Origin: Candidatus Hadarchaeota archaeon
Lineage (GTDB): Archaea > CAYQAE01 > CAYVLA01
Length of the DNA: 64,000 nucleotides
Assembly (NCBI GenBank): GCA_964621445.1
Contig: CAZUNO010000003.1
Coordinates: 124,664-188,663 of the forward strand
Direction: 5' to 3'
In this document: piece after piece, positions 5,872-58,815 of the stretch
How positions within the stretch are numbered: the first letter of the stretch is position 1
Layout of the letters: each line of letters opens with the position of its first letter
Made by a program: the position numbers and the translations under genes
The notes under the pieces: model-generated
What the model was told of the DNA's origin: nothing
Databases searched by the model: none
What the model saw: only the letters and a program-made list of their open reading frames with translations

Positions 5872-6567
5872 TTGACCCTTCTCAACATATGGGGAGACCA
5901 ATTGAAAATCGCTATCAAGATCGGGGGCTCCATTTCCATCAACGGGGAGGGTCCTCGGAAGGATTTTGTATCAAAATTTGCAGAGGTCGTCCGTGACATA
6001 TCCTTCGATACTCTATGCGTTGGAATTGGAGGGGGGAAGTTGGCCAGAAACTACCTGCAGGCAATTGAACCCTTCCTCAACGACCAGGAATCGGAATTGG
6101 TCGTCCTGGACATTCTCAGGGCAAATACCAGGTTCATGGCCTCGGTTCTTGGAGGACGGGCCGTTCTGGATGAATCCTCTCTAAACCTGCTTTCCAGAGG
6201 CCAGGACGGCATTCTGGTCATCGGAGGAATCAAGCCAGGAAGAAGCACAGATGCAAATACCGCTCTCCTGGGCGAGAAGGTCGGCGTTGACCTATTTGTA
6301 AAGATGACCAACGTGCGGGGGGTCTTCGATGCGGACCCCGCGTCCGACCCCGGCGCCCAGCTCATCAGGAGGATGACCTACGACCAGCTATACGAGCTTT
6401 CCATCGAGGGGAGCCCCGGTAGTTATGGAATACTGGACCGTCTAGCAATTGATGTACTCAAGCGGTCGGGAATACCCACCCGTATCATCGATGGTCGGCG
6501 ACCGAAGGGGCTAAAGATGGTCCTGGAAGGCAAGGACCTAGGAACCCTGGTGCTCCCCGAGGATTAG
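5872..6567 (+). CDS. pyrH: UMP kinase, archaeal type (amino-acid kinase family)
   Basis: 'LKIAIKIGGS' N-terminal kinase motif and 'VGIGGGKLARNYL'. True start is probably the in-frame TTG at about 5902. A TATA-like 'catatataatgataaat' lies upstream at about 5796-5815. Confidence 0.6.
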   Translation: MTLLNIWGDQLKIAIKIGGSISINGEGPRKDFVSKFAEVVRDISFDTLCVGIGGGKLARNYLQAIEPFLNDQESELVVLDILRANTRFMASVLGGRAVLDESSLNLLSRGQDGILVIGGIKPGRSTDANTALLGEKVGVDLFVKMTNVRGVFDADPASDPGAQLIRRMTYDQLYELSIEGSPGSYGILDRLAIDVLKRSGIPTRIIDGRRPKGLKMVLEGKDLGTLVLPED

Positions 6568-12692: not shown

Positions 12693-13568
12693 TTGGGCCT
12701 AAACTACCGGGAGGCAGCTTTGATAGATATTAGCAATTGCCGACCTGATCCTGATTTCAACGGTAAAACCTATGAGAGAATCGCGAGAACACTAAACCTA
12801 GATACCTATGCTGATCACGAAGCCACTCAAATTCTCCATTCCCTTATGATGGGCAGGGCAGAGGAATCCAGAAATGCCTTGGACCGGCTTGAAGAACTTG
12901 TAAACTCTAGACCTGCCTTCGTATTTGGGTGTGGACCTTCCCTGGATAACCATATCGCGGGATGCATTTCCTATCTGAGATCCGCAAAGGTGGTGACAAT
13001 AGCCGCCGATGGTGCAGCATCTGCCCTCATTGACAGGGAGGTCCTGCCAGATATCGTGGTTACCGACCTGGATGGAATACCGTCCGATATTTCCCTGGCA
13101 TCAAATAGGGGAACCATAGTACTACTACATGCACATGGTGATAACCTGAACTCGGTTCGGAGATGGCTGCCAAGAATCAACAACGTTATACCTGTGACCC
13201 AGACCGAACCGACGGACCTTGTTCACAACTTCGGAGGTTTCACGGATGGAGACAAATCAGTACATGTAGCCTGCCTGTTCGGTTGCTCGGCCTTGCTGCT
13301 TGCTGGAATGGACTTTGGAAACGAGGTGGGCCGATGGTCGTCTCCACAAGGCCCTCATGATGACCTTGGAATGAAACTGAAAAAGCTGGAAATTGGTAGT
13401 GAACTAACAGCCAGATGCATATCAGAATGTGGTGCACCTGTGTATTCACTCCCACCCAGCCCATTCGACTGGGTTCCTGAAATTGAGTGCCAGAGACTTC
13501 CCAAAATTTTGGGCGCTAGGAGAACGAGAGATGAAAGACAAGATGCTAATCGAAAAAATGATGCCTGA
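12693..13568 (+). CDS. mptE: 6-hydroxymethylpterin diphosphokinase MptE-like (DUF115)
   Basis: 'FVFGCGPSLD' and 'IVVTDLDG' DUF115 motifs; first gene of a pterin cluster. Confidence 0.5.
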   Translation: MGLNYREAALIDISNCRPDPDFNGKTYERIARTLNLDTYADHEATQILHSLMMGRAEESRNALDRLEELVNSRPAFVFGCGPSLDNHIAGCISYLRSAKVVTIAADGAASALIDREVLPDIVVTDLDGIPSDISLASNRGTIVLLHAHGDNLNSVRRWLPRINNVIPVTQTEPTDLVHNFGGFTDGDKSVHVACLFGCSALLLAGMDFGNEVGRWSSPQGPHDDLGMKLKKLEIGSELTARCISECGAPVYSLPPSPFDWVPEIECQRLPKILGARRTRDERQDANRKNDA

Positions 13569-14175
13569 AGGTTCGTTACAGGAGCTAATCCTGGTCTCAA
13601 TATCACAGGCTGGGAAAACCAACCTAGCACCAATAGGCGTTTGGAGCGATGATAAAGGGCTCTTGGCAAGGATTGGCCGCGAAACCCAGAGCATGCGTAA
13701 CTTGCTCAGCCGTCCTCAAGCCCGTTTTTGTGTGACCCTGAACCCGCTATTGATAGCCAAATCGGCGTTTAATCTTGATTGCCATGAATTTATCCTGGAT
13801 GATAGCAGAGGACTCCCCCAGATATCCGGTTCCGAAGCCGATATTCTGGTGGAGATGAAGAGCCATAGGGATTTCGTGAAGAGGGACCTGCTTGGGAATT
13901 CGCCCTTTGTAGAGGTGCTCTTCGAGGTAAAGGAGGTCAAGGTAAAAGGATTGCCTCGTCCCCCATCTCGTTCTCTTTGTGCGACCATCGACTCCATCAT
14001 AGGAATAACTAGGGCTAGGCTGGCTCTTGAAAGGGAACTGGAAATATATGAACAGCTGGCTAGGCAGGTAAGAGAAAATATTTCAAAAGCAAGGAGGTTA
14101 GGAACAAACCAGGAAGAGGAGGAGGCCCTCCAGCTGTGCGAGGAAGAGCTGAAAGATATGACTAGAGAGGAGTGA
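13531..14175 (+). CDS. hypothetical protein, possibly DUF447-like split-barrel flavoprotein associated with methanopterin clusters
   Basis: Track ORF starts at 13429 inside the previous gene; in-frame ATG at 13531 ('MKDKMLIEKMM') gives a compact junction. Family assignment weak. Confidence 0.3.
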   Translation: MKDKMLIEKMMPEGSLQELILVSISQAGKTNLAPIGVWSDDKGLLARIGRETQSMRNLLSRPQARFCVTLNPLLIAKSAFNLDCHEFILDDSRGLPQISGSEADILVEMKSHRDFVKRDLLGNSPFVEVLFEVKEVKVKGLPRPPSRSLCATIDSIIGITRARLALERELEIYEQLARQVRENISKARRLGTNQEEEEALQLCEEELKDMTREE

Positions 14176-15737
14176 GCATGAACATGCTCACTGATGAGGG
14201 GGGGAAACCGCTCATAATAACCGGAAGGATCTGCTATCCAAGTATAAGTAAACTCACGCGCGAATTTGAAATCTCCATTTATGAGGTACCGATCGACGTC
14301 GCGGCCTTACTCACGGCAAATGATGTCATCGATGCCATGAAGGATATTGACCTGGAGGAGATAAGCTACGTCATGCTACCGGGTATGTTCAGAGGAGACA
14401 TAGACGCCCTCCAGGAGCGCTTTCAGATACCGTTCTTTCTAGGTCCTACTAACTTCGTTGATATACCTCTAGTAGTAAGCGAAACCTCGATCGCCGAGCT
14501 ATCAAAGACGGTCCCCGCCGATAGGCAAATAGCAGACCATAAGCGGAAAGAGGTTCTTGGCTTCTACAGAGATGCACGCCGCAGGGAAAACCAATGGCAA
14601 GGGGAACCTCTCATTATTGGTCATGATGATAATGGGGTATCCATAGGGAGAGGGTGCCCACCTGCACTGGTTGCCGAGGTCGTTGATGCACCAAGGAAGG
14701 ATGTCAAGGACATCCTAAAGGAATGCAGGCACTACCTTGAATCCGGAGCAGATATCATAGATATGGGGATGATTCCTCGGGAGGATAACTCGAAATGGAT
14801 CACATCAACAATACCCGAGATTAAGGCCGAAATCCAGGCGGCCATCAGTATAGACACAATGTCAGAGAAAGAGATCTTGGCTGCGAACGATCACCAAGCG
14901 GATCTTATTCTAAGTATCTGTGGAAGCACCATTGATTTAGTCCCCAGCATCGACCTGCCCTTTGTGCTAGTTCCCGTTGATGATCCCCAAAGCAAACCCC
15001 CTGATTCCAGCCAAGCCAGAGTAGAGAAGCTAAAATCCTACCTAAAACTCATCGGTAACCGGAATGTAATCCTTGACCCTTTACTGGCACCAATAGGAAC
15101 TGGATTCTATTCATCCATTAAATCGTATTTAAAACTGGAGGAGGAACTCCCGAAATTTCCATCATTAATGGGGATAGGAAATGTTACCGAATTAATCGAT
15201 GTTGATTCCATTGGCATCAACGCAGTGCTCGCTGCTTTGGCGCTCAAGGCAAACACGTCATTGATCTTAACAACGGAAAACAGCCAAAAATGTAGAAACT
15301 CGTTATCGGAGCTCAGCACAGCTTTAGCGATGATCTATTACTCACAACAGAAAAAAATAGTCCCAAAAAACATGGGCCTTAACCTCCTTCGCTACAAGGA
15401 AAAGAGGAAAAGGATTGATCCCACACCTCTAGCAAAACCTGAAATCAAGGCAGGAAAAGGAAAGCAAAAAACGGATATTGATAGGAATATAAAGTTCCAC
15501 ATTTTACTAAGGAACAAAAGAATTCATGTACTGAGGGAGGGAGAGGGAGATAAGATCCATCTTTCGGGGAATTCCGCCATGGACATCTGCTTTGAGCTGG
15601 ATAGGCAAGAACTATTGCCGGGACCAGCCCATTCCGTGTATTTAGGAAGGGAGCTGGCAAAGGCAGAGACCGCGCTAAAGACCGGCCGTAGCTACATCCA
15701 GGACCAGAACCTATTCACTGAGGTTGATGAGTCTTGA
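14172..15737 (+). CDS. mptH: dihydropteroate synthase-like pterin-binding protein with C-terminal extra domain (MptH-like)
   Basis: Pterin-binding TIM-barrel features ('GADIIDMG', 'ISIDT'); C-terminal 'GDKIHLSGNSAMDICFELDRQ' resembles the extension in archaeal DHPS-like proteins. Confidence 0.5.
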   Translation: MSMNMLTDEGGKPLIITGRICYPSISKLTREFEISIYEVPIDVAALLTANDVIDAMKDIDLEEISYVMLPGMFRGDIDALQERFQIPFFLGPTNFVDIPLVVSETSIAELSKTVPADRQIADHKRKEVLGFYRDARRRENQWQGEPLIIGHDDNGVSIGRGCPPALVAEVVDAPRKDVKDILKECRHYLESGADIIDMGMIPREDNSKWITSTIPEIKAEIQAAISIDTMSEKEILAANDHQADLILSICGSTIDLVPSIDLPFVLVPVDDPQSKPPDSSQARVEKLKSYLKLIGNRNVILDPLLAPIGTGFYSSIKSYLKLEEELPKFPSLMGIGNVTELIDVDSIGINAVLAALALKANTSLILTTENSQKCRNSLSELSTALAMIYYSQQKKIVPKNMGLNLLRYKEKRKRIDPTPLAKPEIKAGKGKQKTDIDRNIKFHILLRNKRIHVLREGEGDKIHLSGNSAMDICFELDRQELLPGPAHSVYLGRELAKAETALKTGRSYIQDQNLFTEVDES

Positions 15738-16729
15738 AAACTGGAGTTCGGGTTAAAACCGGTCCAAGACTCCATTTCGGCTTGTTAGACCTATCCGGTG
15801 ACATGGGCAGGGTGGACGGTGGAATCGGCATGGCCCTTCAGGAACCTTCTCTGGTCATCCAGGGTAGGAGATCGAGTTCCACGAAAAGCAACAAGTTCTC
15901 TAAACTGGTTGAGTATGCGGTTGACGCTCTAAACAAGCATTATGATAAAAATTACAGCCTCGATATCCAGGTAGATCGATCTTACCCCCAGCACGTGGGA
16001 CTGGGATCCACCACCCAGATCCTCCTCTCAATCTCATACATCTACAACTTAATTTTCGGACGAACACATAACTCGCGAGAAATGGCCAATTTGCTAGGGC
16101 GAGGTGGAACATCCGGGATTGGGGTAGCATCCTTTCGATCAGGAGGCTTCATACTTGATGCAGGTCATACCTTTGGTCATAACGGTGAAAAGAATACATT
16201 CCTGCCGTCGAGGGTTTCTAATTGTCCTCCTGCACCCGTTCTCTTTAGGCATCGCATTGCATCTGACTGGGTCGTTGATCTACTCGTACCCCTTGATTCC
16301 CCAGGCCTCTCCGGTAGACCTGAAGCCGAATTCTTTCAGAAAAAATGCCCAATTCCTCGGCCAGAAACCGATAGGATATCTAGAATAGTATTATCAATTA
16401 TCCTTCCAAGCGTTATTTCATCTGATATTAAACGCTTTTCTAAAGGCATTAACCTACTTACAACGTTGGGATTCAAGTATCTAGAGATACAAAACCAATC
16501 TGAATACGTAAGGAATCTAATTTCCGATATTAAACTGGTTACTAAAAATCAAGCAGCAGTTGGTTTAAGTTCATTTGGTCCAACCGTTTTTGTTATAAGT
16601 AAAAATAATTTAAGAATGAAATTCATTGATAAATTAAAGGATCACATATCGTATATACAATCACAACATGGAGTTACTTACTACGTAACAAGGTGTAGAA
16701 ATATTGGGGCTACTGTAAATGTATGGTAG
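15734..16729 (+). CDS. mptG: beta-ribofuranosylaminobenzene 5'-phosphate synthase-like (GHMP kinase fold)
   Basis: N-terminal 'RLHFGLLDL' and GHMP 'GLGSTT' motif. The last 350 nt are markedly AT-rich relative to the rest of the gene. Confidence 0.55.
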   Translation: MKTGVRVKTGPRLHFGLLDLSGDMGRVDGGIGMALQEPSLVIQGRRSSSTKSNKFSKLVEYAVDALNKHYDKNYSLDIQVDRSYPQHVGLGSTTQILLSISYIYNLIFGRTHNSREMANLLGRGGTSGIGVASFRSGGFILDAGHTFGHNGEKNTFLPSRVSNCPPAPVLFRHRIASDWVVDLLVPLDSPGLSGRPEAEFFQKKCPIPRPETDRISRIVLSIILPSVISSDIKRFSKGINLLTTLGFKYLEIQNQSEYVRNLISDIKLVTKNQAAVGLSSFGPTVFVISKNNLRMKFIDKLKDHISYIQSQHGVTYYVTRCRNIGATVNVW

Positions 16730-16917
16730 TTATCTTCATTGTTTGATTGTTTGACAAAGGAAACAGAACAACCTGAAAGAGGGGTACTATTGAGTTTTGT
16801 TTGATCGTTTGAATGATTATAGTTGTAGCTCCGATGGATATCTTGGAAAAGAGCATTTTCCCACCTGGTTTAGTTTTTTGTTTGTGTATGTTTGTTCAAA
16901 TGTTCAAATGGATTGGG

Positions 16918-18018
16918 TTATCCCTTTTTGAAGGCTCTGGTAATATCTTTGGAGAGAGTGTACTTGTTTTTTCTCCCGACTTTTTCCACTTGAACTGCTC
17001 CCATGTTACGTAACCTGTTTAGTTGGGTGTTTATGCTACCGTAGTTGTCAACGTCGAGTTCATCTAGCACATCCTTTATGAAGGCACCGTCGGGATAGTC
17101 AACAAGGGCCTGGATTATCTCACTTTGTTGTGGTGAGTATCTTTCTAGGATCTGTTCTCTCATTGGGCCCGTGTCCTTCTTCTTTCCTAGGTAATCAGCG
17201 ACCAGATCGGCATCTATAACATCTTTCCCTGACCTAATAGTCTGGAAGACTAATTGAGCTGCTATGGTTAGAGTATCCCTGGGTACCCCGTTTGAGTGTG
17301 CATGGATCTGTTCTATCGCCTCGTCTGTGAAGGGAAGGCCATCCTCTACTTCCTTCTCACCCCTGGCCCATGCTATTCTCCTGTAGATAAGTTCCTTTGT
17401 TTCTTCTAGGTCGAATGCCTCGAGGTAGATACGCATCTTTATTCGATCCTCGAGCGGAGGAACTTTCTTCCTGATGGTGTCTAGAGCATCTTCAGTTCCC
17501 GCGAACACTATGGACCCGCCGGCATCGTGTAGGGTTCTCACCCATCGGGCAGCTGGTTCGGATATTTCCTGGAATTCGTCGATTAAGATAACGATGTTTT
17601 CTTGTTGTAGGTGTTGTGTTATGTTTGTTGCAATTCTGTCTAGCTCTAGGGCCCTGTTTCTGGAAAAGATGGAGGATAGTCTTTCCAGGATGGAGGGTGA
17701 GTGAACGTTTTGATGTATGTGCCGGAGCATTTCGTCGTGGGTAAGGGGTTTTTCTATTAGGATTACCTTTCCGCCATTTTCCTTGCGAAGCATGTAGTGA
17801 AGCTTCTTTAGAAATGCGCTTTTACCATATCCTATGGGGGAAAGAATGGATACCATGCCCTGGTTATGTTGAAGCATGAAGGTTGCTTGGTTAAGTTCCT
17901 CTTCGTATCTGGGAACATAAACGAATTCATTGGGTAAAGGAGTATTCAGAATAAAGGGTTCTCTTCCGTGAGTCCAGCCTTGTTTGTTATAGAACTCCTC
18001 TGTTATGTTGGTGTTCAA
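16918..18018 (-). CDS. AAA+ ATPase with C-terminal winged helix (archaeal ATPase/AAA_22-like; Orc1-like not excluded)
   Basis: Walker A 'SPIGYGKSAFL', Walker B 'ILIDEFQ', C-terminal wHTH-like 'NRLRNMGAVQVEKVGRKNKYTL'; sits in a low-GC, GT-skewed island. Confidence 0.5.
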   Translation of the reverse strand: MNTNITEEFYNKQGWTHGREPFILNTPLPNEFVYVPRYEEELNQATFMLQHNQGMVSILSPIGYGKSAFLKKLHYMLRKENGGKVILIEKPLTHDEMLRHIHQNVHSPSILERLSSIFSRNRALELDRIATNITQHLQQENIVILIDEFQEISEPAARWVRTLHDAGGSIVFAGTEDALDTIRKKVPPLEDRIKMRIYLEAFDLEETKELIYRRIAWARGEKEVEDGLPFTDEAIEQIHAHSNGVPRDTLTIAAQLVFQTIRSGKDVIDADLVADYLGKKKDTGPMREQILERYSPQQSEIIQALVDYPDGAFIKDVLDELDVDNYGSINTQLNRLRNMGAVQVEKVGRKNKYTLSKDITRAFKKG

Positions 18019-18019
18019 T

Positions 18020-18563
18020 TTCTACCACTGAGGTGCGTGCCTTAAGGATCGTCTTGTGCGGGTAAACCTAAACATCACTCTAACGTTTGCTGAACATAGA
18101 TAACGTACGGCTTCCAATAATTGATAGGCAAATCTCGTTCTAATAAAGCTTTTTGTTTTATTTGTTGGCCCATGTTTTAGTTGTTGTTGCGCTCTGATCA
18201 GAAGTTGTATGAATAGTTGGGTTTGTTGTTATTGTTGGGGTGCTTTGGTAGGCAATTTTGATAGGCCTGGATATATCCAAAAGCAGATGATAATGATTTC
18301 GTTTGGTTTGTTGGTCTATTGTGTTCCTTCCGTTATGCTTGAATGTTTGGTGGGGTTTAACTCAGAGACCGTTGTTGGTCTTGTTGGAGTTAGTTATTGC
18401 TTACGTTAGGAGTTTGTATATGTTTGTTATTGATACGTTTACCTGTTAGCTGAACCGTTTATTGATGCGGTATAGTTGTTAGGCAGGTTTGAATTTGTTT
18501 GTTTTGGTGTTATTGGCGGTGGATAATGGCTGTTTAATTTGTTGATTTGTTATTAAGCGTATG
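18020..18563 (+). other. 544-bp non-coding stretch with strong G+T skew on the plus strand and a recurring 'gttattg' motif
   Basis: Only low-complexity ORFs; base composition unlike flanking coding DNA. Confidence 0.4.
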
Positions 18564-19493
18564 TTATGCTTTAGCTCGACCTATTAAATGGCGGGAAATT
18601 GCGCCAGTTACGTCAACTCCGGATGCCCTAGCGGTTGCTTCAAATGATGGAGAAGGGTTAACTTCAAGTAGCTTATGCCCTTCGGAAGTATCAAGAATGT
18701 CTACGCCGGCAATATCTAGATTAAGTACTTCTGAAGCCTTAATAGCGTCTTCAGCCATCTCAGCGGGTATATATTGTTTATCCAGCGCCTCTGCGGTGGC
18801 ACCAAGGGATATATTATGCTTGTATATGGAGCCCTGTCGCTTTATTGCAGCGATGATTTCATTACCAACAAGCAGTATTCTAATATCATATGAGGAAGGA
18901 ATGTAGGGCTGGATCATGGCGGGTTGTTTGTTCATATGAAAGAGGGAAAGGGTGTCTCCTAAACAAACATCATCCTTAGCTAACATAACACCAATCCCAC
19001 CAGCGCTTTGAAGGGCCTTGATTACACAGGGGGAATGGATAGTTGAGTTTGTTATATGTATGTTACGTATGGGGTTTGGTGATACGAAAAAGGGAACTAT
19101 TGGTAAATCATTTTTAGATAGAATGGAGAGACAAAGATGCTTCCTGGCGCTTAGATATATGGAACGCGGATGGTTAATAACGGGGACTTGTTGAGAGGCA
19201 ATCCACATGGTCTCAAAAAAGAATTGGAAACATCTAGGACCGTATTCCTCAAGCCATGAAGATATGGGCCTTTGGAAAATTAGATCAAAGGAGGAAAATG
19301 ACATGTTTTCAACTTGGCCGTAAGCTAGGTCATTTAGGTCTGGAGAAGGGCCTGAACCGGTTTGAGGATGATTGATTAGGGAGAGCCAGGTGTCATTTGG
19401 ACTGAAAACATCAAATTCGATGCCCAGGGAATTGAATTTTGGGGCAAAAAGGGATACTTCCTTTTTGTTTTTTGGAAAGTAGGCTATCCTCAT
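18564..19493 (-). CDS. RimK-family ATP-grasp alpha-L-glutamate ligase (MptN/CofF-like)
   Basis: ATP-grasp C-terminal core ('VNPSPSFE', 'DIAGVDILD'); 309 aa is typical of RimK-type ligases; AT-rich codon usage. Confidence 0.55.
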   Translation of the reverse strand: MRIAYFPKNKKEVSLFAPKFNSLGIEFDVFSPNDTWLSLINHPQTGSGPSPDLNDLAYGQVENMSFSSFDLIFQRPISSWLEEYGPRCFQFFFETMWIASQQVPVINHPRSIYLSARKHLCLSILSKNDLPIVPFFVSPNPIRNIHITNSTIHSPCVIKALQSAGGIGVMLAKDDVCLGDTLSLFHMNKQPAMIQPYIPSSYDIRILLVGNEIIAAIKRQGSIYKHNISLGATAEALDKQYIPAEMAEDAIKASEVLNLDIAGVDILDTSEGHKLLEVNPSPSFEATARASGVDVTGAISRHLIGRAKA

Positions 19494-20085
19494 TGGAATT
19501 CCCTTTGATTTTATGTTATGACTTGTAGCATAACAAGAAGGGGGGGAAAAGTTATATGTGTTGTTATGATTAGAATAATGGAGTAAGAAAGGGGTTGGCT
19601 GATAACGGCAAGGTTAGAGATTTGGGTTAATAACAATAGGGGGTAAATGGGGAAATTACAAATAAATATTAATAAGATTGATTCCAAAAGTTATTAATCA
19701 TTTTATTCAGCATTGGAATTAGAAGCCAGAAATGCGTTCATGAAGATATGAGATGACATTAATCCTGTATCTGGGACGTTGGAGATTATCATTTGCTAAA
19801 TAAAGAAATCTAAGGGCCTGGCCTGCCGGTTACGGGCATTAATTGTAAATCATAATAAGTCTCAAAAAGGGGGGTGGAAACGGAAAAAAAGAAAGAGGCA
19901 TCTCGAAAAGGGGCAAAAGGGGGGTGCTAGTGTAACTATATATGAATTAGGGCTGCAATAAGGTTTAATTAAAAAAATGGACAGCTATGGGGGCATAAGA
20001 GGAGTAATGGGAAGCAAAAAGGGGTTTGATGGGTAATAAGATGGGTGTTAGGAGGGGGTCAAGGATGCAGGATTATTTCTAATAC
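19494..20085 (+). other. 592-bp purine-rich non-coding region with G runs
   Basis: No ORF of 60 aa or more in any frame; A+G-rich on the plus strand; lies between the ATP-grasp gene start and the mfnB-like gene end. Confidence 0.4.
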
Positions 20086-20793
20086 TCAAATTAGGGTTTC
20101 TTTGAAACGATCAACCCTATGTGCCGTTATTTTACCGTTACGCCGGTCGTTAGATTGACAGGCAGCACCTCTGATACCTATAACATCTGGTGATAATGTT
20201 TTGAGTTGTTTAGAGTGATTCAGATTTAGGGAGCCGGCCAGGGCGGAGATCATATCCATTTCCTGGAGGTGGGAGATAAATGAACAGAGTTCATCATAAG
20301 CCATGAAGTCAAACAAACATCTACCATCTTTGTTTATTGTGTCGATAAGGACCCCATCAGCTCCAGATTGGGATGCCGCCTGGAGTAGGACCAGGGGGGA
20401 AATGGACCCAACAAGTTCCCAGTCGGCGTAGCCACAGGCTATTACCTTAATCGAGGGATCGATTGATTTAACGATATCAACGGAGGGGGTGAGTAGGGCT
20501 TGGGCCTCGGATTGGGTTTTTGTACCAAAGAGACCAAGCTTAACGTAATCCGGTGAAAGATATGCCGCCCCGGCGGCTGCCAAGCTGACGGTTCCGGGAA
20601 GATTTGGGAGATCACCTATAGCACAACTGGTTTCACTTGTTCCGTTTACGGCATCGATAATCCTAGAGGCCTTCTGGGGAGTTGGGGCTCCAAGAGAGCC
20701 CTCCGCGGGATTCTTTATGTCAACAATGTCGGCGCCACCCGAGATGGCTTCTGGCACCTCTTCCTCGTCTACAACGCTGACTAGTAACCTCAT
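20086..20793 (-). CDS. mfnB: (5-formylfuran-3-yl)methyl phosphate synthase MfnB-like (DUF556)
   Basis: 'MRLLVSVVDEEEV...GGADIVDIKNPAEGSLGA' and 'DVIGIRGAAC' closely match my recollection of M. jannaschii MfnB. Confidence 0.65.
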   Translation of the reverse strand: MRLLVSVVDEEEVPEAISGGADIVDIKNPAEGSLGAPTPQKASRIIDAVNGTSETSCAIGDLPNLPGTVSLAAAGAAYLSPDYVKLGLFGTKTQSEAQALLTPSVDIVKSIDPSIKVIACGYADWELVGSISPLVLLQAASQSGADGVLIDTINKDGRCLFDFMAYDELCSFISHLQEMDMISALAGSLNLNHSKQLKTLSPDVIGIRGAACQSNDRRNGKITAHRVDRFKETLI

Positions 20794-25479: not shown

Positions 25480-26160
25480 GTGATTGCTGGAATTGTGCCC
25501 TGCAAGGGACTGAAAAATGGGAAAACTAGGCTTGATCTTCCACCTGAACTTGGGAGAGAAAAGAGGGAGCTAATAATATCAATGTTTGATCGGGTTCTAA
25601 AAGCGATGGTGGAAAGCAGGCTGGAGACGGTCTATGTAGTGAGCCCTGACGAAGGCATCCTTGAGCATGGTTCCGCTTTGGGAGCGCGGACAATTCTTGA
25701 ATACAATCCCTCGGGGGCCAATTCCGCTGTTGAGCTGGCTAATAAAAAAGCGATTAAAGACGGCTTTGAGGCAACGCTCGTTGCTTTTTCGGACATTCCT
25801 CTTATCTCGAAGCGGGACCTAAACGGAATACTGGACTTGATTATTGAGTCTAACAGATGCGTGGCCGCGCTCCGTTCAAGGAGGGGGGGAACGAACCTTC
25901 TATTGCGGAAACCTCCTTCGGCAATACCATCTCGATACGGGAAAAACAGTTTTATCAAGCATCGCGATGAGACAATGCAGAATAGAATTCCCTTCTTTGA
26001 GTATGTGAGCAACCCGGCGTCCCTCGATGTAGATACGATATCCGATTTGAGGCTCTTGTTTCGGGGTGAGAGGTCGGCAGGGAATGAGTTGGAAAAAGAA
26101 GAACAATTTCGAATCTCACAAAGGATCACGGAGGCATTAGATTGGCGAAGTCGAGAATAG
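25480..26160 (+). CDS. cofC: MobA-like nucleotidyltransferase, CofC-like (2-phospho-L-lactate guanylyltransferase family)
   Basis: N-terminal 'MIAGIVPCKGLKNGKTRL' and 'AFSDIPLI' resemble CofC/MobA-type guanylyltransferases. Confidence 0.4.
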   Translation: MIAGIVPCKGLKNGKTRLDLPPELGREKRELIISMFDRVLKAMVESRLETVYVVSPDEGILEHGSALGARTILEYNPSGANSAVELANKKAIKDGFEATLVAFSDIPLISKRDLNGILDLIIESNRCVAALRSRRGGTNLLLRKPPSAIPSRYGKNSFIKHRDETMQNRIPFFEYVSNPASLDVDTISDLRLLFRGERSAGNELEKEEQFRISQRITEALDWRSRE

Positions 26161-32008: not shown

Positions 32009-32074
32009 GGGATACGGATAACCGTCCTTGAATCCGAGAACATTTTAAAGCAAATCCAACTAGTGATCTGCGGT

Positions 32075-32198
32075 GGGCCGGTAGATCAGTCGGTAGATCG
32101 TCGTCTTGGCATGGCGTTTAACGCCCCAAGCTGGCGGAGGCCGCGGGACAGGGTCTGGGTTTCCAGGCCTTGCGCGAATTCAAATCCCGCCCGGTCCA
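32075..32198 (+). tRNA. tRNA-Ala (anticodon GGC) with two predicted introns (20 nt at 32112-32131 after position 37; 31 nt at 32148-32178 in the T-arm)
   Basis: Hand fold: acceptor GGGCCGG/CCGGTCC with G3:U70, D-arm TA-GATC-AGTCGGTA-GATC, anticodon stem TCGTC/GGCGG, T-arm GCGGG-TTCAAAT-CCCGC, discriminator A; no encoded CCA. The second intron position is non-canonical. Confidence 0.45.
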
Positions 32199-32518
32199 CT
32201 TTCGGGTTAACCCATTTAACCAATTAGGAATATAAAATAGGCCTTTTTGGATTTTTTTATGGGGAATATTGCCAATTACGGGGAAATCCGTTTCGATTTA
32301 CGTGCAAAATGTCTTATTATAGACCCGATGTCACAAAAACTTTATAAGCAGGCCCGTCCTTTACAGGAATGGGTCGCCTGAGCGGTAACTCAACCCCCTA
32401 AACCCCGAAAAGAAAGAACCCCCTATTTCCCCGAATTGTGTGTTTCTTTTCTCGCTGAGGCGGCCCCTTTGGGTAAAGACCAATAAGCCTCTAGTATACA
32501 CCATATTATCGTGGTCGA

Positions 32519-35833: not shown

Positions 35834-35933
35834 GGGCCCGTGGTCTAGCTGGTTATGACATCGCCTTGACGTACTCCTTTTCAGGCGTTCAAAAAGGCGA
35901 AGTTCTTGGGTTCAAATCCCAACGGGCCCACCA
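35834..35933 (+). tRNA. tRNA-Val (anticodon GAC) with a 23-nt canonical intron (35872-35894) and encoded CCA
   Basis: Acceptor GGGCCCG/CGGGCCC, anticodon stem TCGCC/GGCGA, loop TTGACG-intron-A, T-arm TTGGG-TTCAAAT-CCCAA, discriminator A then CCA. Confidence 0.7.
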
Positions 35934-56231: not shown

Positions 56232-57461
56232 GTGACCATGGCTGGTCAGAGACCATTGGGGTTGGGCTCGATAATTTTATTGGTTTTTGCCCTTTTTGTT
56301 CCACAATCGGCCTCATCTCTCCCTGATGGTAGGCTAGGCGTTCTATACGTGGGGTGTTTTGCTCGCTCCGCGCCCTTCGAGCAAATGAAGAACGATCCTT
56401 TTTTCTCCATGAGCTATGTGCCGGCCACATTTAGGGACTGGGTTGCGGTTGCCGGGCTCACCATAGATGATACCAAGAGAATGATTAGGCTTTATATGCC
56501 GCGGACCCTGGAAAGGCTGACCAGCCGGTTTGACGTGGTGGCACTGGCTAACGCTAATAGGATGGGTTTGGGAACCAGGAACGTGGAGATGATTGCCAAG
56601 GGAGTGCGGGAGGAGGGGGTCGGGTTTTTCATGTCCGGCAGCTTTGAGAGTTTTGGGGCTAACGCGGGATATCCTGCTTGGGGCGATAGTGCCATCGGGG
56701 AGATACTGCCAACTGAGGATGTCGTGGACACCTGGCCCCAATGCGGCCGTCTTGTCCTCGACGCACCGGATCACGAACTTCTCAGTAGTGTACCTTGGGA
56801 CGACCCTGCACTCAAGCATCCCGATAAATGGGATCATAACCTGGTCACCGTAAAGCCTGGGGCGAACCAGATTGCACATCTTTTGTGGAAGCCGGGGGTT
56901 GACCACCCCCTGATGGTTACCTGGGAGGTAGAGGGCGGGGCAACGGTTTTCGCGCTGACCAGCGAGATTTCGCGTCTCACCTGGACTGGGGATGCCTGGG
57001 AGTACGATTACGATTTCGGTAGCAATCTCATGATCTACCTGGACGGCCGACCTGTGCCCCAGGAAACGGAGATCGTTCACCGGGCCAGGTCCAAGATACT
57101 GGAGATAGCGGATAGGAGGAAGTTGGTTATCGACCTTCTCCAGTTCAGCGAGTCCTTCGGGGCCAATACACATGAGGTAATGAACAGTCTTGGCGAGGTG
57201 GACGAGGTCATTTCCCAGGCCTCCGAGCAGTACATCGATCTCCAGTACCAGGAGATGCTGGAAACAAACGAAATAGTGGTCTCCATGCTCCAGGATTTAC
57301 AGCAGGAGGCGGTTGAACTAAAGAACCATGCCCTGATGTGGGTCTATTTAATCGAGTGGCTGGCAGTTACGGGGACCGCTCTGGTCTGCGGTTTCGTGCT
57401 TTGGACGGTTATGGTCCGGCGCAAGCTTTACAGGCAGGTTAAAGTGACCAGAGGTAGGTAA
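56232..57461 (+). CDS. GATase1-like domain protein with signal peptide and C-terminal TM anchor; paralog B
   Basis: See paralog A; divergent from the giant gene. Confidence 0.5.
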   Translation: MTMAGQRPLGLGSIILLVFALFVPQSASSLPDGRLGVLYVGCFARSAPFEQMKNDPFFSMSYVPATFRDWVAVAGLTIDDTKRMIRLYMPRTLERLTSRFDVVALANANRMGLGTRNVEMIAKGVREEGVGFFMSGSFESFGANAGYPAWGDSAIGEILPTEDVVDTWPQCGRLVLDAPDHELLSSVPWDDPALKHPDKWDHNLVTVKPGANQIAHLLWKPGVDHPLMVTWEVEGGATVFALTSEISRLTWTGDAWEYDYDFGSNLMIYLDGRPVPQETEIVHRARSKILEIADRRKLVIDLLQFSESFGANTHEVMNSLGEVDEVISQASEQYIDLQYQEMLETNEIVVSMLQDLQQEAVELKNHALMWVYLIEWLAVTGTALVCGFVLWTVMVRRKLYRQVKVTRGR

Positions 57462-57579: not shown

Positions 57580-58815
57580 ATGATCCACGAAAATAAGGCG
57601 CTTTTGATCGCTGGACTCGCCTTTTTCCTATTCCTTATGGTTTCCATGCCCACGGAGGCCCTGCCTAGCGGGAAAATTGGGGTTCTCTATATTGGCGATC
57701 TCGCTCGCTCACCACCTTTCAACATGATGACCTCTGACCCTCTGTTTTCCATGTCCTTCGTTCCCGCATCTCTTCGTGATGACTGGGCTGCCGAGGCGGG
57801 GCTTACAATCGATGATGTCCATAGGAGGATACGGCTCTATATGCCACGGACCACGGAAGCACTCGCCGATCGGGCCGATATCGTGGTGCTGTCCAATGGA
57901 AATCGTTTGGCGGTGGGCTCCAAGAACGCCGACCTGATCGCAAGAGGGGTCCGGGAAGAGGGGGTCGGCCTCTTAATGGCCGGTGGATGGGAGAGTTTCG
58001 GTGGCAGTGGGAGTTGGTCCCCGCCGTGGGGGGAGACGTCCATAGGAGAGATACTCCCAACCGAGGATTTGGCGGGCACATGGATACAGGATGGGCGCCT
58101 GGTTATCGATAGACCTGACCATGAGCTCATTGACAGTTTGCCCTGGGATTCCCCGTTGTTAAAGAATCCCGTTCTTTGGCACCATAACCTGGTCCAGGTC
58201 AAGCCGGGTGCCAATCTGCTCGCCCACGCTCTTTGTGCGGGGGGAGAGGAGCACCCCCTGATGGTTACCTGGGAGATCGAGGCGACCAGGGTATTCGCCC
58301 TTACCAGCGAGATACACACCCTTTCTTGGTATGGAAAGCCCTGGAAGTACGACTATGATTTCGGGAGCAACCTGATGATATACCTGGATGGTAGGCCTGT
58401 GCCCCAGGAGATCGAACTGGTTCACCGGGCCAGGTCCAAGATACTGGAGATGGATCGGAGGAAATCGCTTCTGATGGGCCTTCTGGATTTCTGTGACTCC
58501 TTCGGCGCCAATACGAAAGCGGTCATGTCCAAGATCGATCAGGCCGATGATGTGCTATCACAGGCAAATGAGGAATATCTACAGCTACGATTCCAGGAGA
58601 TGCTGGAAACCTACGAGGTAGCGGAGGACATGATCGAGGAGGTTGAGGAGGACGCGGTGGAACTAAAAAACCGGGCCCTTCTCTGGGTTTACGTTATCGA
58701 GTGGCTGGCGGTAACCGGAACCGCCCTGGTCTGCGGTTTCGTGCTCTGGACGGTTATGATCCAGCGACGATATTTCAGAGAGGTCCGCAGCACCCGTCAC
58801 AGGTCAGGAAGATGA
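57580..58815 (+). CDS. GATase1-like domain protein with signal peptide and C-terminal TM anchor; paralog C
   Basis: Tandem to paralog B with the same conserved blocks and C-terminal TM helix. Confidence 0.5.
   Translation: MIHENKALLIAGLAFFLFLMVSMPTEALPSGKIGVLYIGDLARSPPFNMMTSDPLFSMSFVPASLRDDWAAEAGLTIDDVHRRIRLYMPRTTEALADRADIVVLSNGNRLAVGSKNADLIARGVREEGVGLLMAGGWESFGGSGSWSPPWGETSIGEILPTEDLAGTWIQDGRLVIDRPDHELIDSLPWDSPLLKNPVLWHHNLVQVKPGANLLAHALCAGGEEHPLMVTWEIEATRVFALTSEIHTLSWYGKPWKYDYDFGSNLMIYLDGRPVPQEIELVHRARSKILEMDRRKSLLMGLLDFCDSFGANTKAVMSKIDQADDVLSQANEEYLQLRFQEMLETYEVAEDMIEEVEEDAVELKNRALLWVYVIEWLAVTGTALVCGFVLWTVMIQRRYFREVRSTRHRSGR

Follow-up and report, generated by a model that had tools for sequence, protein, structure and literature searches.

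Positions 32075–32198 (forward strand) of the 64-kb stretch of DNA analyzed here, hereafter referred to as the window, raise the question of whether they hold a tRNA gene at all and, if so, how often and where that gene is interrupted. Default ARAGORN finds no tRNA in the whole 64-kb window, Rfam with standard filters misses the gene and returns as its sole match a tRNA at 35834–35930, and the only open reading frame at the site (32063–32227, +, 54 aa, with a GTG start) is a mechanical call that spans the whole tRNA gene. With relaxed filters only, the Rfam family RF00005 matches exactly 32075–32198 over model positions 1–71 with 37.7 bits against a gathering score of 29 (E-values of 1.6e-6 in a local scan and 2.5e-4 over the whole window), and this tRNA match is far beyond chance. 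In a relative (L112), a 31-residue product in the gene caller's table at 1641–1941 overlaps the end of the corresponding tRNA; ORF calls of this kind, including the 54-aa frame in the window, are probably spurious and hide the tRNA in annotations.

The original prediction held that a tRNA-Ala fold is recovered here only if two segments are removed, 20 nt after position 37 and 31 nt between the 5' strand of the T-stem and the T-loop, and its boundaries proved exact. When 32112–32131 and 32148–32178 are removed in silico, ARAGORN gives a flawless 73-nt tRNA-Ala(ggc) with stems of 7/4/5/5 bp, a 5-nt variable loop, A73 and the alanine identity pair G3:U70 that had also been predicted, which together are the features of a class I tRNA and the identity elements of tRNA-Ala. 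Removal of either segment alone leaves no fold or a distorted one. As read along the forward strand, the interval runs GGGCCGG UA GAUC AGUCGGUA GAUC G UCGUC UUGGCA (20 nt) U GGCGG AGGCC GCGGG (31 nt) UUCAAAU CCCGC CCGGUCC A, and its parts, with exon positions numbered from the ARAGORN cloverleaf of the spliced sequence, are as follows, preceded by a putative promoter.

32036–32049 (+): BRE-like element GAGAACA (32036–32042) and TATA box TTTTAAA (32043–32049), ending 25 nt before the mature 5' end
32075–32111 (+): exon 1, tRNA positions 1–37, comprising the acceptor 5' strand, D-arm, anticodon stem 5' strand, U33, anticodon GGC and A37
32112–32131 (+): intron 1, 20 nt, at the canonical site 37/38, strict hBHBh', with a bulge-helix-bulge in the local minimum-energy fold
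32132–32147 (+): exon 2, tRNA positions 38–53, comprising the anticodon stem 3' strand, variable loop AGGCC and T-stem 5' strand GCGGG
32148–32178 (+): intron 2, 31 nt, at the non-canonical site 53/54 on the T-stem/T-loop boundary, relaxed HBh'
32179–32198 (+): exon 3, tRNA positions 54–73, comprising T-loop UUCAAAU, the T-stem 3' strand, the acceptor 3' strand with U70 and discriminator A73

The CCA end is not encoded by the window gene and is encoded in four orthologs. The predicted spliced product agrees with intron-less archaeal tRNA-Ala homologs at 71/73 positions, as seen at five loci from a distant lineage (L082, L083, L092, L096, L103). Under the Rfam tRNA model, intron-less genes score 66.5 bits, single-intron Hermodarchaeota genes about 54 and two-intron genes 37.5–44, and a single-intron fold outscoring the two-intron model was not found. 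In tRNAscan-SE 2.0 an insert is judged by whether its removal raises the score and restores the fold (PMC8450103), and both effects are seen here by way of the intron-less equivalents and ARAGORN. On sequence and comparative grounds, we hold it to be highly probable that 32075–32198 (+) is a tRNA-Ala(GGC) gene of three exons and two bulge-helix-bulge (BHB) introns, functional in an uncultured archaeon.

Geometry of the two introns

In the BHB geometry, a 3-nt bulge lies 3' of each strand of the central helix H and is cut after its second nucleotide (PMC4090602). The strict form, hBHBh', has two 3-nt bulges with a 4-bp helix between them, inner and outer helices, and cuts after bulge nucleotide 2, and intron 1 shows all of these. 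Its helix H pairs UUGG (32106–32109) with CCAA (32126–32129), its bulges are CA^U (32110–32112) and GC^U (32130–32132), its inner helix joins 32113–32116 to 32122–32125 (GGCG:CGCC) and its outer helix is the anticodon stem itself (27–31 with 39–43). This layout is the same in all 10 orthologous sequences, among which the inner helix appears as GGCG:CGCC, GGUG:CACC, GGC:GCC or GGG:CCC. Since intron 1 and exon 2 of the window both begin with TGGCG (5 nt), sequence alone would permit a junction anywhere from 37/38 to 42/43; we set it at 37/38 because of the BHB geometry and because the introns of the orthologs begin with A, and the 20 nt that had been predicted to follow position 37 agree with both.

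Intron 2 lies between G53 and U54, as anticipated. Its helix H (4 bp, CGCG:CGCG) is formed by exon nucleotides C48–G51 (32142–32145) and the CGCG of the intron at 32173–32176, the 5' bulge is GG^A (32146–32148, i.e., G52 G53 ^ A), the 3' site is AA^U (32177–32179, i.e., A A ^ U54) and both cuts are in the correct register. The inner helix of 10 bp (32149–32158 with 32163–32172) begins right after the bulge and stops right before H'. We sought an outer helix and found only a weak 3-bp pairing at the 3' site, the register of which shifts between orthologs. As the 3' site is not closed by an outer helix, intron 2 is assigned to the relaxed HBh' type (PMC4090602, PMC5829648) and falls outside the strict hBHBh' definition. 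The inner helix covaries (CAGG:CCUG, CGGG:CCCG, CAGA:UCUG). Helix H is invariant in the orthologs, which is expected since its exon strand doubles as a strand of the T-stem, so that it is backed by conservation and geometry and covariation is uninformative for it. When H is forced, the fold lies only 4–7 kcal/mol above the T-stem conformer (in six orthologs), and the minimum-energy fold makes the T-stem instead. It is clear that a BHB motif is present at the junctions of both introns, strict in the first and relaxed in the second; the lack of a valid motif there had been named beforehand as grounds for rejecting the two-intron structure.

Orthologs, covariation and competing readings

Nine further distinct genes, gathered by an exon-1 pattern scan of metagenomes and by contig look-ups via the flanking proteins, carry insertions at exactly both sites (metagenomic and MAG contigs L090, L093 (= L110, L111), L098, L112, L086 (= L089), L088 (= L115–L117), L097, L104 and L107), which makes ten sequences with the window. 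Their intron 1 measures 16–22 nt and their intron 2 27–31 nt, with diverged interiors. Most of them share the gene order of the window, namely FtsX permease, PUA, LSm, L37e, tRNA, 806-aa SpeE-like membrane protein and PCMT (L097 and L098, the shortest, cover only the genes adjoining the tRNA); their DNA is only 65–74% and their flanking proteins are 50–85% identical. That both introns are kept across diverged collinear loci indicates an old conserved state, not one odd gene.

In the window, the tRNA-Ala gene comes directly after the genes for LSm and ribosomal protein L37e. Among 80 L37e-anchored genome loci, tRNA-Ala(GGC) likewise follows L37e in Hermodarchaeota, Heimdallarchaeota, Bathyarchaeia, Nitrososphaeria and others, and in Theionarchaea and Methanofastidiosa it is found about 1 kb further downstream of L37e. 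Since this order is widespread in archaea, the window gene stands at the orthologous position. A fuzzy exon search of the same 80 loci returned no two-intron copy, and in those Thermoplasmatota loci whose L37e is closest, no tRNA follows it. The signals around the gene are also shared: GAGAACATTT(T)AA, covering the BRE-like element and the TATA box, recurs at an unchanged distance in each of the 9 orthologous loci examined (all but L112), and GGU directly precedes G1 in all nine. T-runs follow 45–60 nt downstream of the gene (32243–32258). By the archaeal BRE/TATA consensus, we infer a promoter function for the upstream signals, and the T-runs would correspondingly act as a terminator.

The covariation test was carried out on nine of the ten sequences (all but L112). 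MAFFT misaligned the intron interiors and was replaced by a boundary-anchored pseudo-alignment of equal length that uses the junctions only, with nothing fitted to structure. The 21 proposed pairs form in 98.4% of cells, vs. 33–47% when their 3' partners are slid by 1–3 columns; five pairs have changed on both sides, and the observed covariation score is attained in none of 500 shuffles. Compensatory substitutions are found in the anticodon stem (pair 27:43 occurs as U-A, C-G and U-G) and in the inner helices of both intron 1 (C-G, G-C and U-A) and intron 2 (A-U to G-C, G-C to A-U, and C-G, U-G and G-C). Helix H of intron 1 shows one change, from U-A to U-G (L107).

These data bear directly on the other ways in which the locus could be read. 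One is that the gene is a disabled tRNA pseudogene, with insertions that are mere debris and an RNA that never matures, another tRNA-Ala reading the codons GCC and GCU. The failure of default gene finders to see the gene would fit such a state, but the exons are essentially invariant, the intron structure has been kept by compensatory changes in 10 diverged genomes and the promoter is conserved; purifying selection of this kind is unexpected for a pseudogene, and we give this explanation only a slim chance.

Another reading accepts that intron 1 is spliced by EndA and takes the T-arm insert to be no BHB intron, so that it would either stay in the tRNA as an expansion or be taken out by a different activity. 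This is in keeping with the missing outer helix of intron 2, with the lack of covariation in its H and with the poor cutting of HBh' substrates by the EndA of M. kandleri and A. fulgidus (PMC5829648). A hairpin of 27–31 nt retained between G53 and U54 would, however, destroy the T-arm and the elbow that every tRNA needs, and the spacing and geometry, a 4-bp H and cleavage behind the second bulge nucleotide of either strand, fit the rules of EndA exactly in all 10 sequences. Enzymes of the (alpha-beta)2 and epsilon2 types do cut HBh' and BHL substrates (PMC3239211, PMC5829648). It seems very improbable that the T-arm insert is anything other than a second BHB intron.

The alignment given by Infernal cmscan, which scores the 37.7 bits noted above and so exceeds the gathering score, represents yet another structure, in which a single large insertion or long variable arm of 53 nt separates the anticodon arm from the T-arm, the 3' strand of the anticodon stem being GGCGU and the 5' strand of the T-stem GCGAA. 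This structure has two A-C mismatches in the T-stem, and tRNA-Ala, being of class I, has a short variable loop. In the orthologs, intron 1 starts with AGG rather than UGGCG, which removes the alternative anticodon stem, and the covariation favors two separate hairpins. The intron-less homologs fit the two-intron product at 66.5 bits, the score of the spliced equivalent, against 37.7 for the single-insertion alignment; a better-scoring single-intron fold, the other outcome that had been set down as speaking against the prediction, was thus looked for and not found, and we regard a single insertion as scarcely credible. The call made by ARAGORN in its intron mode (-i) on the genomic sequence, a one-intron tRNA-Gly(UCC) whose 33-nt intron would lie at 33/34 and whose extra arm would be long, can be dismissed almost with certainty, as its anticodon stem contains a G.G mismatch, its T-stem has just 3 bp, its arm would be class II-like although the tRNA is one for glycine, it ignores G3:U70 and it is not kept in the orthologs, and ARAGORN itself gives the clean alanine fold once the two segments are removed.

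Group I and group II introns in tRNA genes (bacterial or organellar) are hundreds of nucleotides long and contain a catalytic core. Self-splicing introns of either group are ruled out for this gene, with inserts of only 20 and 31 nt and no Rfam intron match.

Proposed splicing, host clade and surrounding features

For the two-intron tRNA-Ala gene, the following pathway seems reasonable. Transcription from its own BRE/TATA promoter would yield a precursor of about 125–130 nt, in which EndA would cut after nucleotide 2 of each bulge flanking the 4-bp helix. Intron 1 would offer the enzyme a strict hBHBh' built on the anticodon stem, and intron 2 a relaxed HBh' in which exon C48–G51 is paired with the CGCG at the 3' side of the intron, meaning that the T-stem could form only after excision. 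An RtcB-type ligase would then join the three exons, RNase P and RNase Z would trim the ends, and CCA would be added post-transcriptionally. We infer the enzymes of this pathway (EndA, ligase and those that trim the ends); neither EndA nor RtcB was detected among 30 ORFs of the window scanned against Pfam. It has been reported that efficient cutting of relaxed HBh' or BHL motifs requires an EndA with a specificity loop, the A. fulgidus alpha'2 and M. kandleri enzymes being poor at this (PMC5829648). As the relaxed T-arm intron is fixed across the clade, the splicing endonuclease of the clade should accept relaxed motifs, and we predict that its EndA has broad substrate specificity.

With regard to the host, all protein searches delimit a tight clade, with in-clade identities of 66–71% for ArgD, then 55% or less for Methanopyrus, Methanonatronarchaeum and Firmicutes, and of 50–66% for the PUA protein, then 44% or less. 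A protein labeled 'Theionarchaea archaeon' has 50% identity to the 806-aa protein and the same PCMT neighbor, and the tRNA-Ala of the Theionarchaea loci L021, L024 and L026 is of a different build and contains a single intron. In a neighbor-joining (NJ) tree of PUA, LSm and L37e, the clade stands on its own deep branch, with a distance that is marginally smallest to Theionarchaea (0.50 vs. 0.52–0.56 for Asgard and Bathyarchaeia); by L37e alone, Thermoplasmatota are closest at 77–79%. The nearest outgroup by PUA similarity (L113 and L114) has no LSm/L37e/tRNA neighborhood. The sequence comparisons point weakly to a host from a deep archaeal clade nearest to Theionarchaea-labeled MAGs.

On the euryarchaeal side of the tree, EndA is usually of the strict alpha4 or alpha'2 type. 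We consider it unlikely, though conceivable, that the clade is a deep euryarchaeal-side lineage weakly nearest to Theionarchaea/Methanofastidiosa, in which case its universally conserved HBh' T-arm intron would imply an independently evolved EndA of broad specificity. Such an enzyme would have a new specificity loop or subunit arrangement (cf. ARMAN-2 and Hadesarchaea), and the 53/54 intron would be a fixed, ancient and non-canonical marker of the clade.

Several other features were observed in the window and are listed here by coordinates.

12693–13568: MptE-like kinase
14172–15737: pterin-binding protein
15734–16729: GHMP-kinase-like protein that may be beta-RFAP synthase
16918–18018 (−): ORF for an AAA/STAND-type NTPase, within a low-G+C region
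20086–20793: MfnB (4-HFC-P synthase)
25480–26160: CofC
32336–32468 (+): conserved non-coding element between the tRNA-Ala gene and the gene for the 806-aa SpeE-like membrane protein
35834–35930 (+): tRNA-Val(GAC) with a canonical 23-nt intron at 37/38 (35872–35894), Rfam 55.8 bits
36293–37561 (−), 56232–57461 (+) and 57580–58815 (+): three paralogous ORFs of about 410–420 aa
46875–56012 (−): 3045-aa ORF flanked by the three paralogous ORFs

The tRNA-Val(GAC) intron has UUGA:UCAA as its H and bulges CG^U and AA^A. For the same interval (35834–35930), ARAGORN in intron mode reports Leu(CAA) with an intron at 33/34, which is a miscall, as removal of the intron gives Val(gac). Both tRNA genes of the 64-kb window thus bear introns, and default ARAGORN detects neither.

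The conserved non-coding element opens with an invariant TATA-like AAAACTTTATAAG (32336–32348), followed about 22 nt on by an RNA of ~98 nt (32371–32468). This RNA has a terminal helix of 15 bp, in which 3 pairs have changed in a compensatory manner, as well as an inner hairpin and long C-rich stretches (CUCAACCCCCUAAACCCC and AAAGAACCCCCUAUUUCCCCGAAUUGUG) that are unpaired and do not vary. It occurs in the eight clade loci in which the core was located (the window, L086, L088, L090, L093, L104, L112 and L117), and in L093 it accompanies the membrane-protein gene rather than the tRNA. Between relatives it is about 80% identical, vs. 65–70% for the flanking coding sequence. No Rfam family matches it (the best match, at E=0.33, is spurious), and a 5S-like or C/D-box identity was rejected, with no Rfam support and no C-box motif; we regard this RNA as a candidate new sRNA or 5' leader.

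Window positions 5872–26160 hold a dense cofactor biosynthesis cluster typical of methanopterin, methanofuran and F420 metabolism, which includes ATP-grasp enzymes besides the genes listed and has an arrangement conserved in the relatives L108 and L110. Genes for methanopterin, methanofuran and F420 do not decide the lineage. Within the cluster, positions 16000–20000 have a G+C content of 0.40–0.43 vs. about 0.52 elsewhere, and this part may be a foreign or mobile insertion. The three paralogous ORFs begin with a signal-peptide-like N-terminus followed by G(R/K)(I/L)GVLY(V/I)G..ARS.PF, one of them having a weak GATase1-like Pfam match, and the product of the 3045-aa ORF is probably a large surface protein.

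Comparison with known multi-intron tRNAs

Multiple or non-canonical tRNA introns have been described in Crenarchaeota/Thermoproteales (up to three per gene), Thaumarchaeota, Korarchaeota, Nanoarchaeota, ARMAN, Asgard, Hadesarchaea, M. kandleri and M. thermautotrophicus (PMC4033280, PMC4090602, PMC5829648, PMC8450103), and T-arm introns are already established (PMC12397907). The original prediction had also expected multi-intron tRNAs to help with lineage placement. The multi-intron character stands, but its value for placement is limited because such introns are known from TACK, Korarchaeota, DPANN, Asgard, Hadesarchaea and Methanopyrus (PMC5829648, PMC4033280). Likewise, the predicted T-arm position is confirmed at 53/54 and is indeed unusual, but it has a precedent in ARMAN-2 (PMC3239211).

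The gene leaves the current understanding of tRNA splicing unchanged. It contributes one more case to the documented co-evolution between the type of EndA and the disruption of tRNA genes (PMC5829648, PMC4033280), and its intron pair could act as a simple clade marker. Since default ARAGORN and Rfam with standard filters both overlook it, genomes of the clade would seem to be without tRNA-Ala(GGC), an apparent absence that would make inferences on completeness or codon usage wrong.

The multi-intron tRNAs of Thermoproteales/TACK resemble the window gene in combining a canonical 37/38 intron with a non-canonical one in a single gene, in their short introns, in their BHB or relaxed HBh' / hBH motifs and in their dependence on a broad-specificity EndA, which is predicted here. 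An example is the tRNA-Pro(UGG) of Pyrobaculum islandicum, with introns at 25/26, 37/38 and 56/57 (PMC4090602). The window gene differs in its host, which belongs to another clade that is not demonstrably TACK and whose intron load is known from two tRNA genes only, with three introns between them, and also in its isoacceptor, Ala(GGC), and in the site 53/54.

Closest in position is the pre-tRNA-Pro(GGG) of ARMAN-2, which has introns at 53/54 and 59/60 (PMC3239211) and thus shares an intron at exactly the T-stem/T-loop boundary of a multi-intron tRNA. The ARMAN-2 introns are reported as strict hBHBh', with the one at 53/54 paired with a second intron in the T-loop, whereas the 53/54 intron of the window is a relaxed HBh' paired with a canonical one at 37/38; the two lineages are unrelated and the intron sequences dissimilar. 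The pre-tRNA-Glu(UUC) of Methanopyrus kandleri offers the same combination of a strict canonical and a relaxed HBh' intron in one precursor outside TACK/DPANN (PMC5829648), although there the relaxed intron lies in the D-loop, not the T-arm, and the EndA is characterized, whereas that of the window clade is predicted only.

The positional orthologs in Hermodarchaeota (L015 and loci within L019–L025), Bathyarchaeia, Nitrososphaeria, Heimdallarchaeota and Atabeyarchaeia (L037), all directly 3' of rpl37e, share the neighborhood of LSm, L37e and tRNA-Ala and have near-identical exons (GGGCCGGTAGATCAG...). In contrast to the window gene, they lack introns, carry a single one (at 37/38 or 33/34) or, in the case of L037, appear to carry two inserts elsewhere, and none has a 53/54 intron. 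Among loci of the Hermodarchaeota type, the single intron is at 37/38 in L015, L084, L085, L099, L101, L091 and L100 and at 33/34 in L019, L020, L022, L025 and L087. The Atabeyarchaeia chromosome (L037:3300–3440) apparently has two inserts, in the variable-region/T-stem and T-arm/acceptor areas, with no anticodon-loop intron, and its tRNA-Ala is not matched by Rfam at E<=0.01. The intron position of this positional ortholog therefore varies between Asgard lineages. Set against these systems, each trait of the gene (several introns in one tRNA, an intron in the T-arm and the 53/54 site) has been documented before, and what is new is this gene in an uncharacterized clade.
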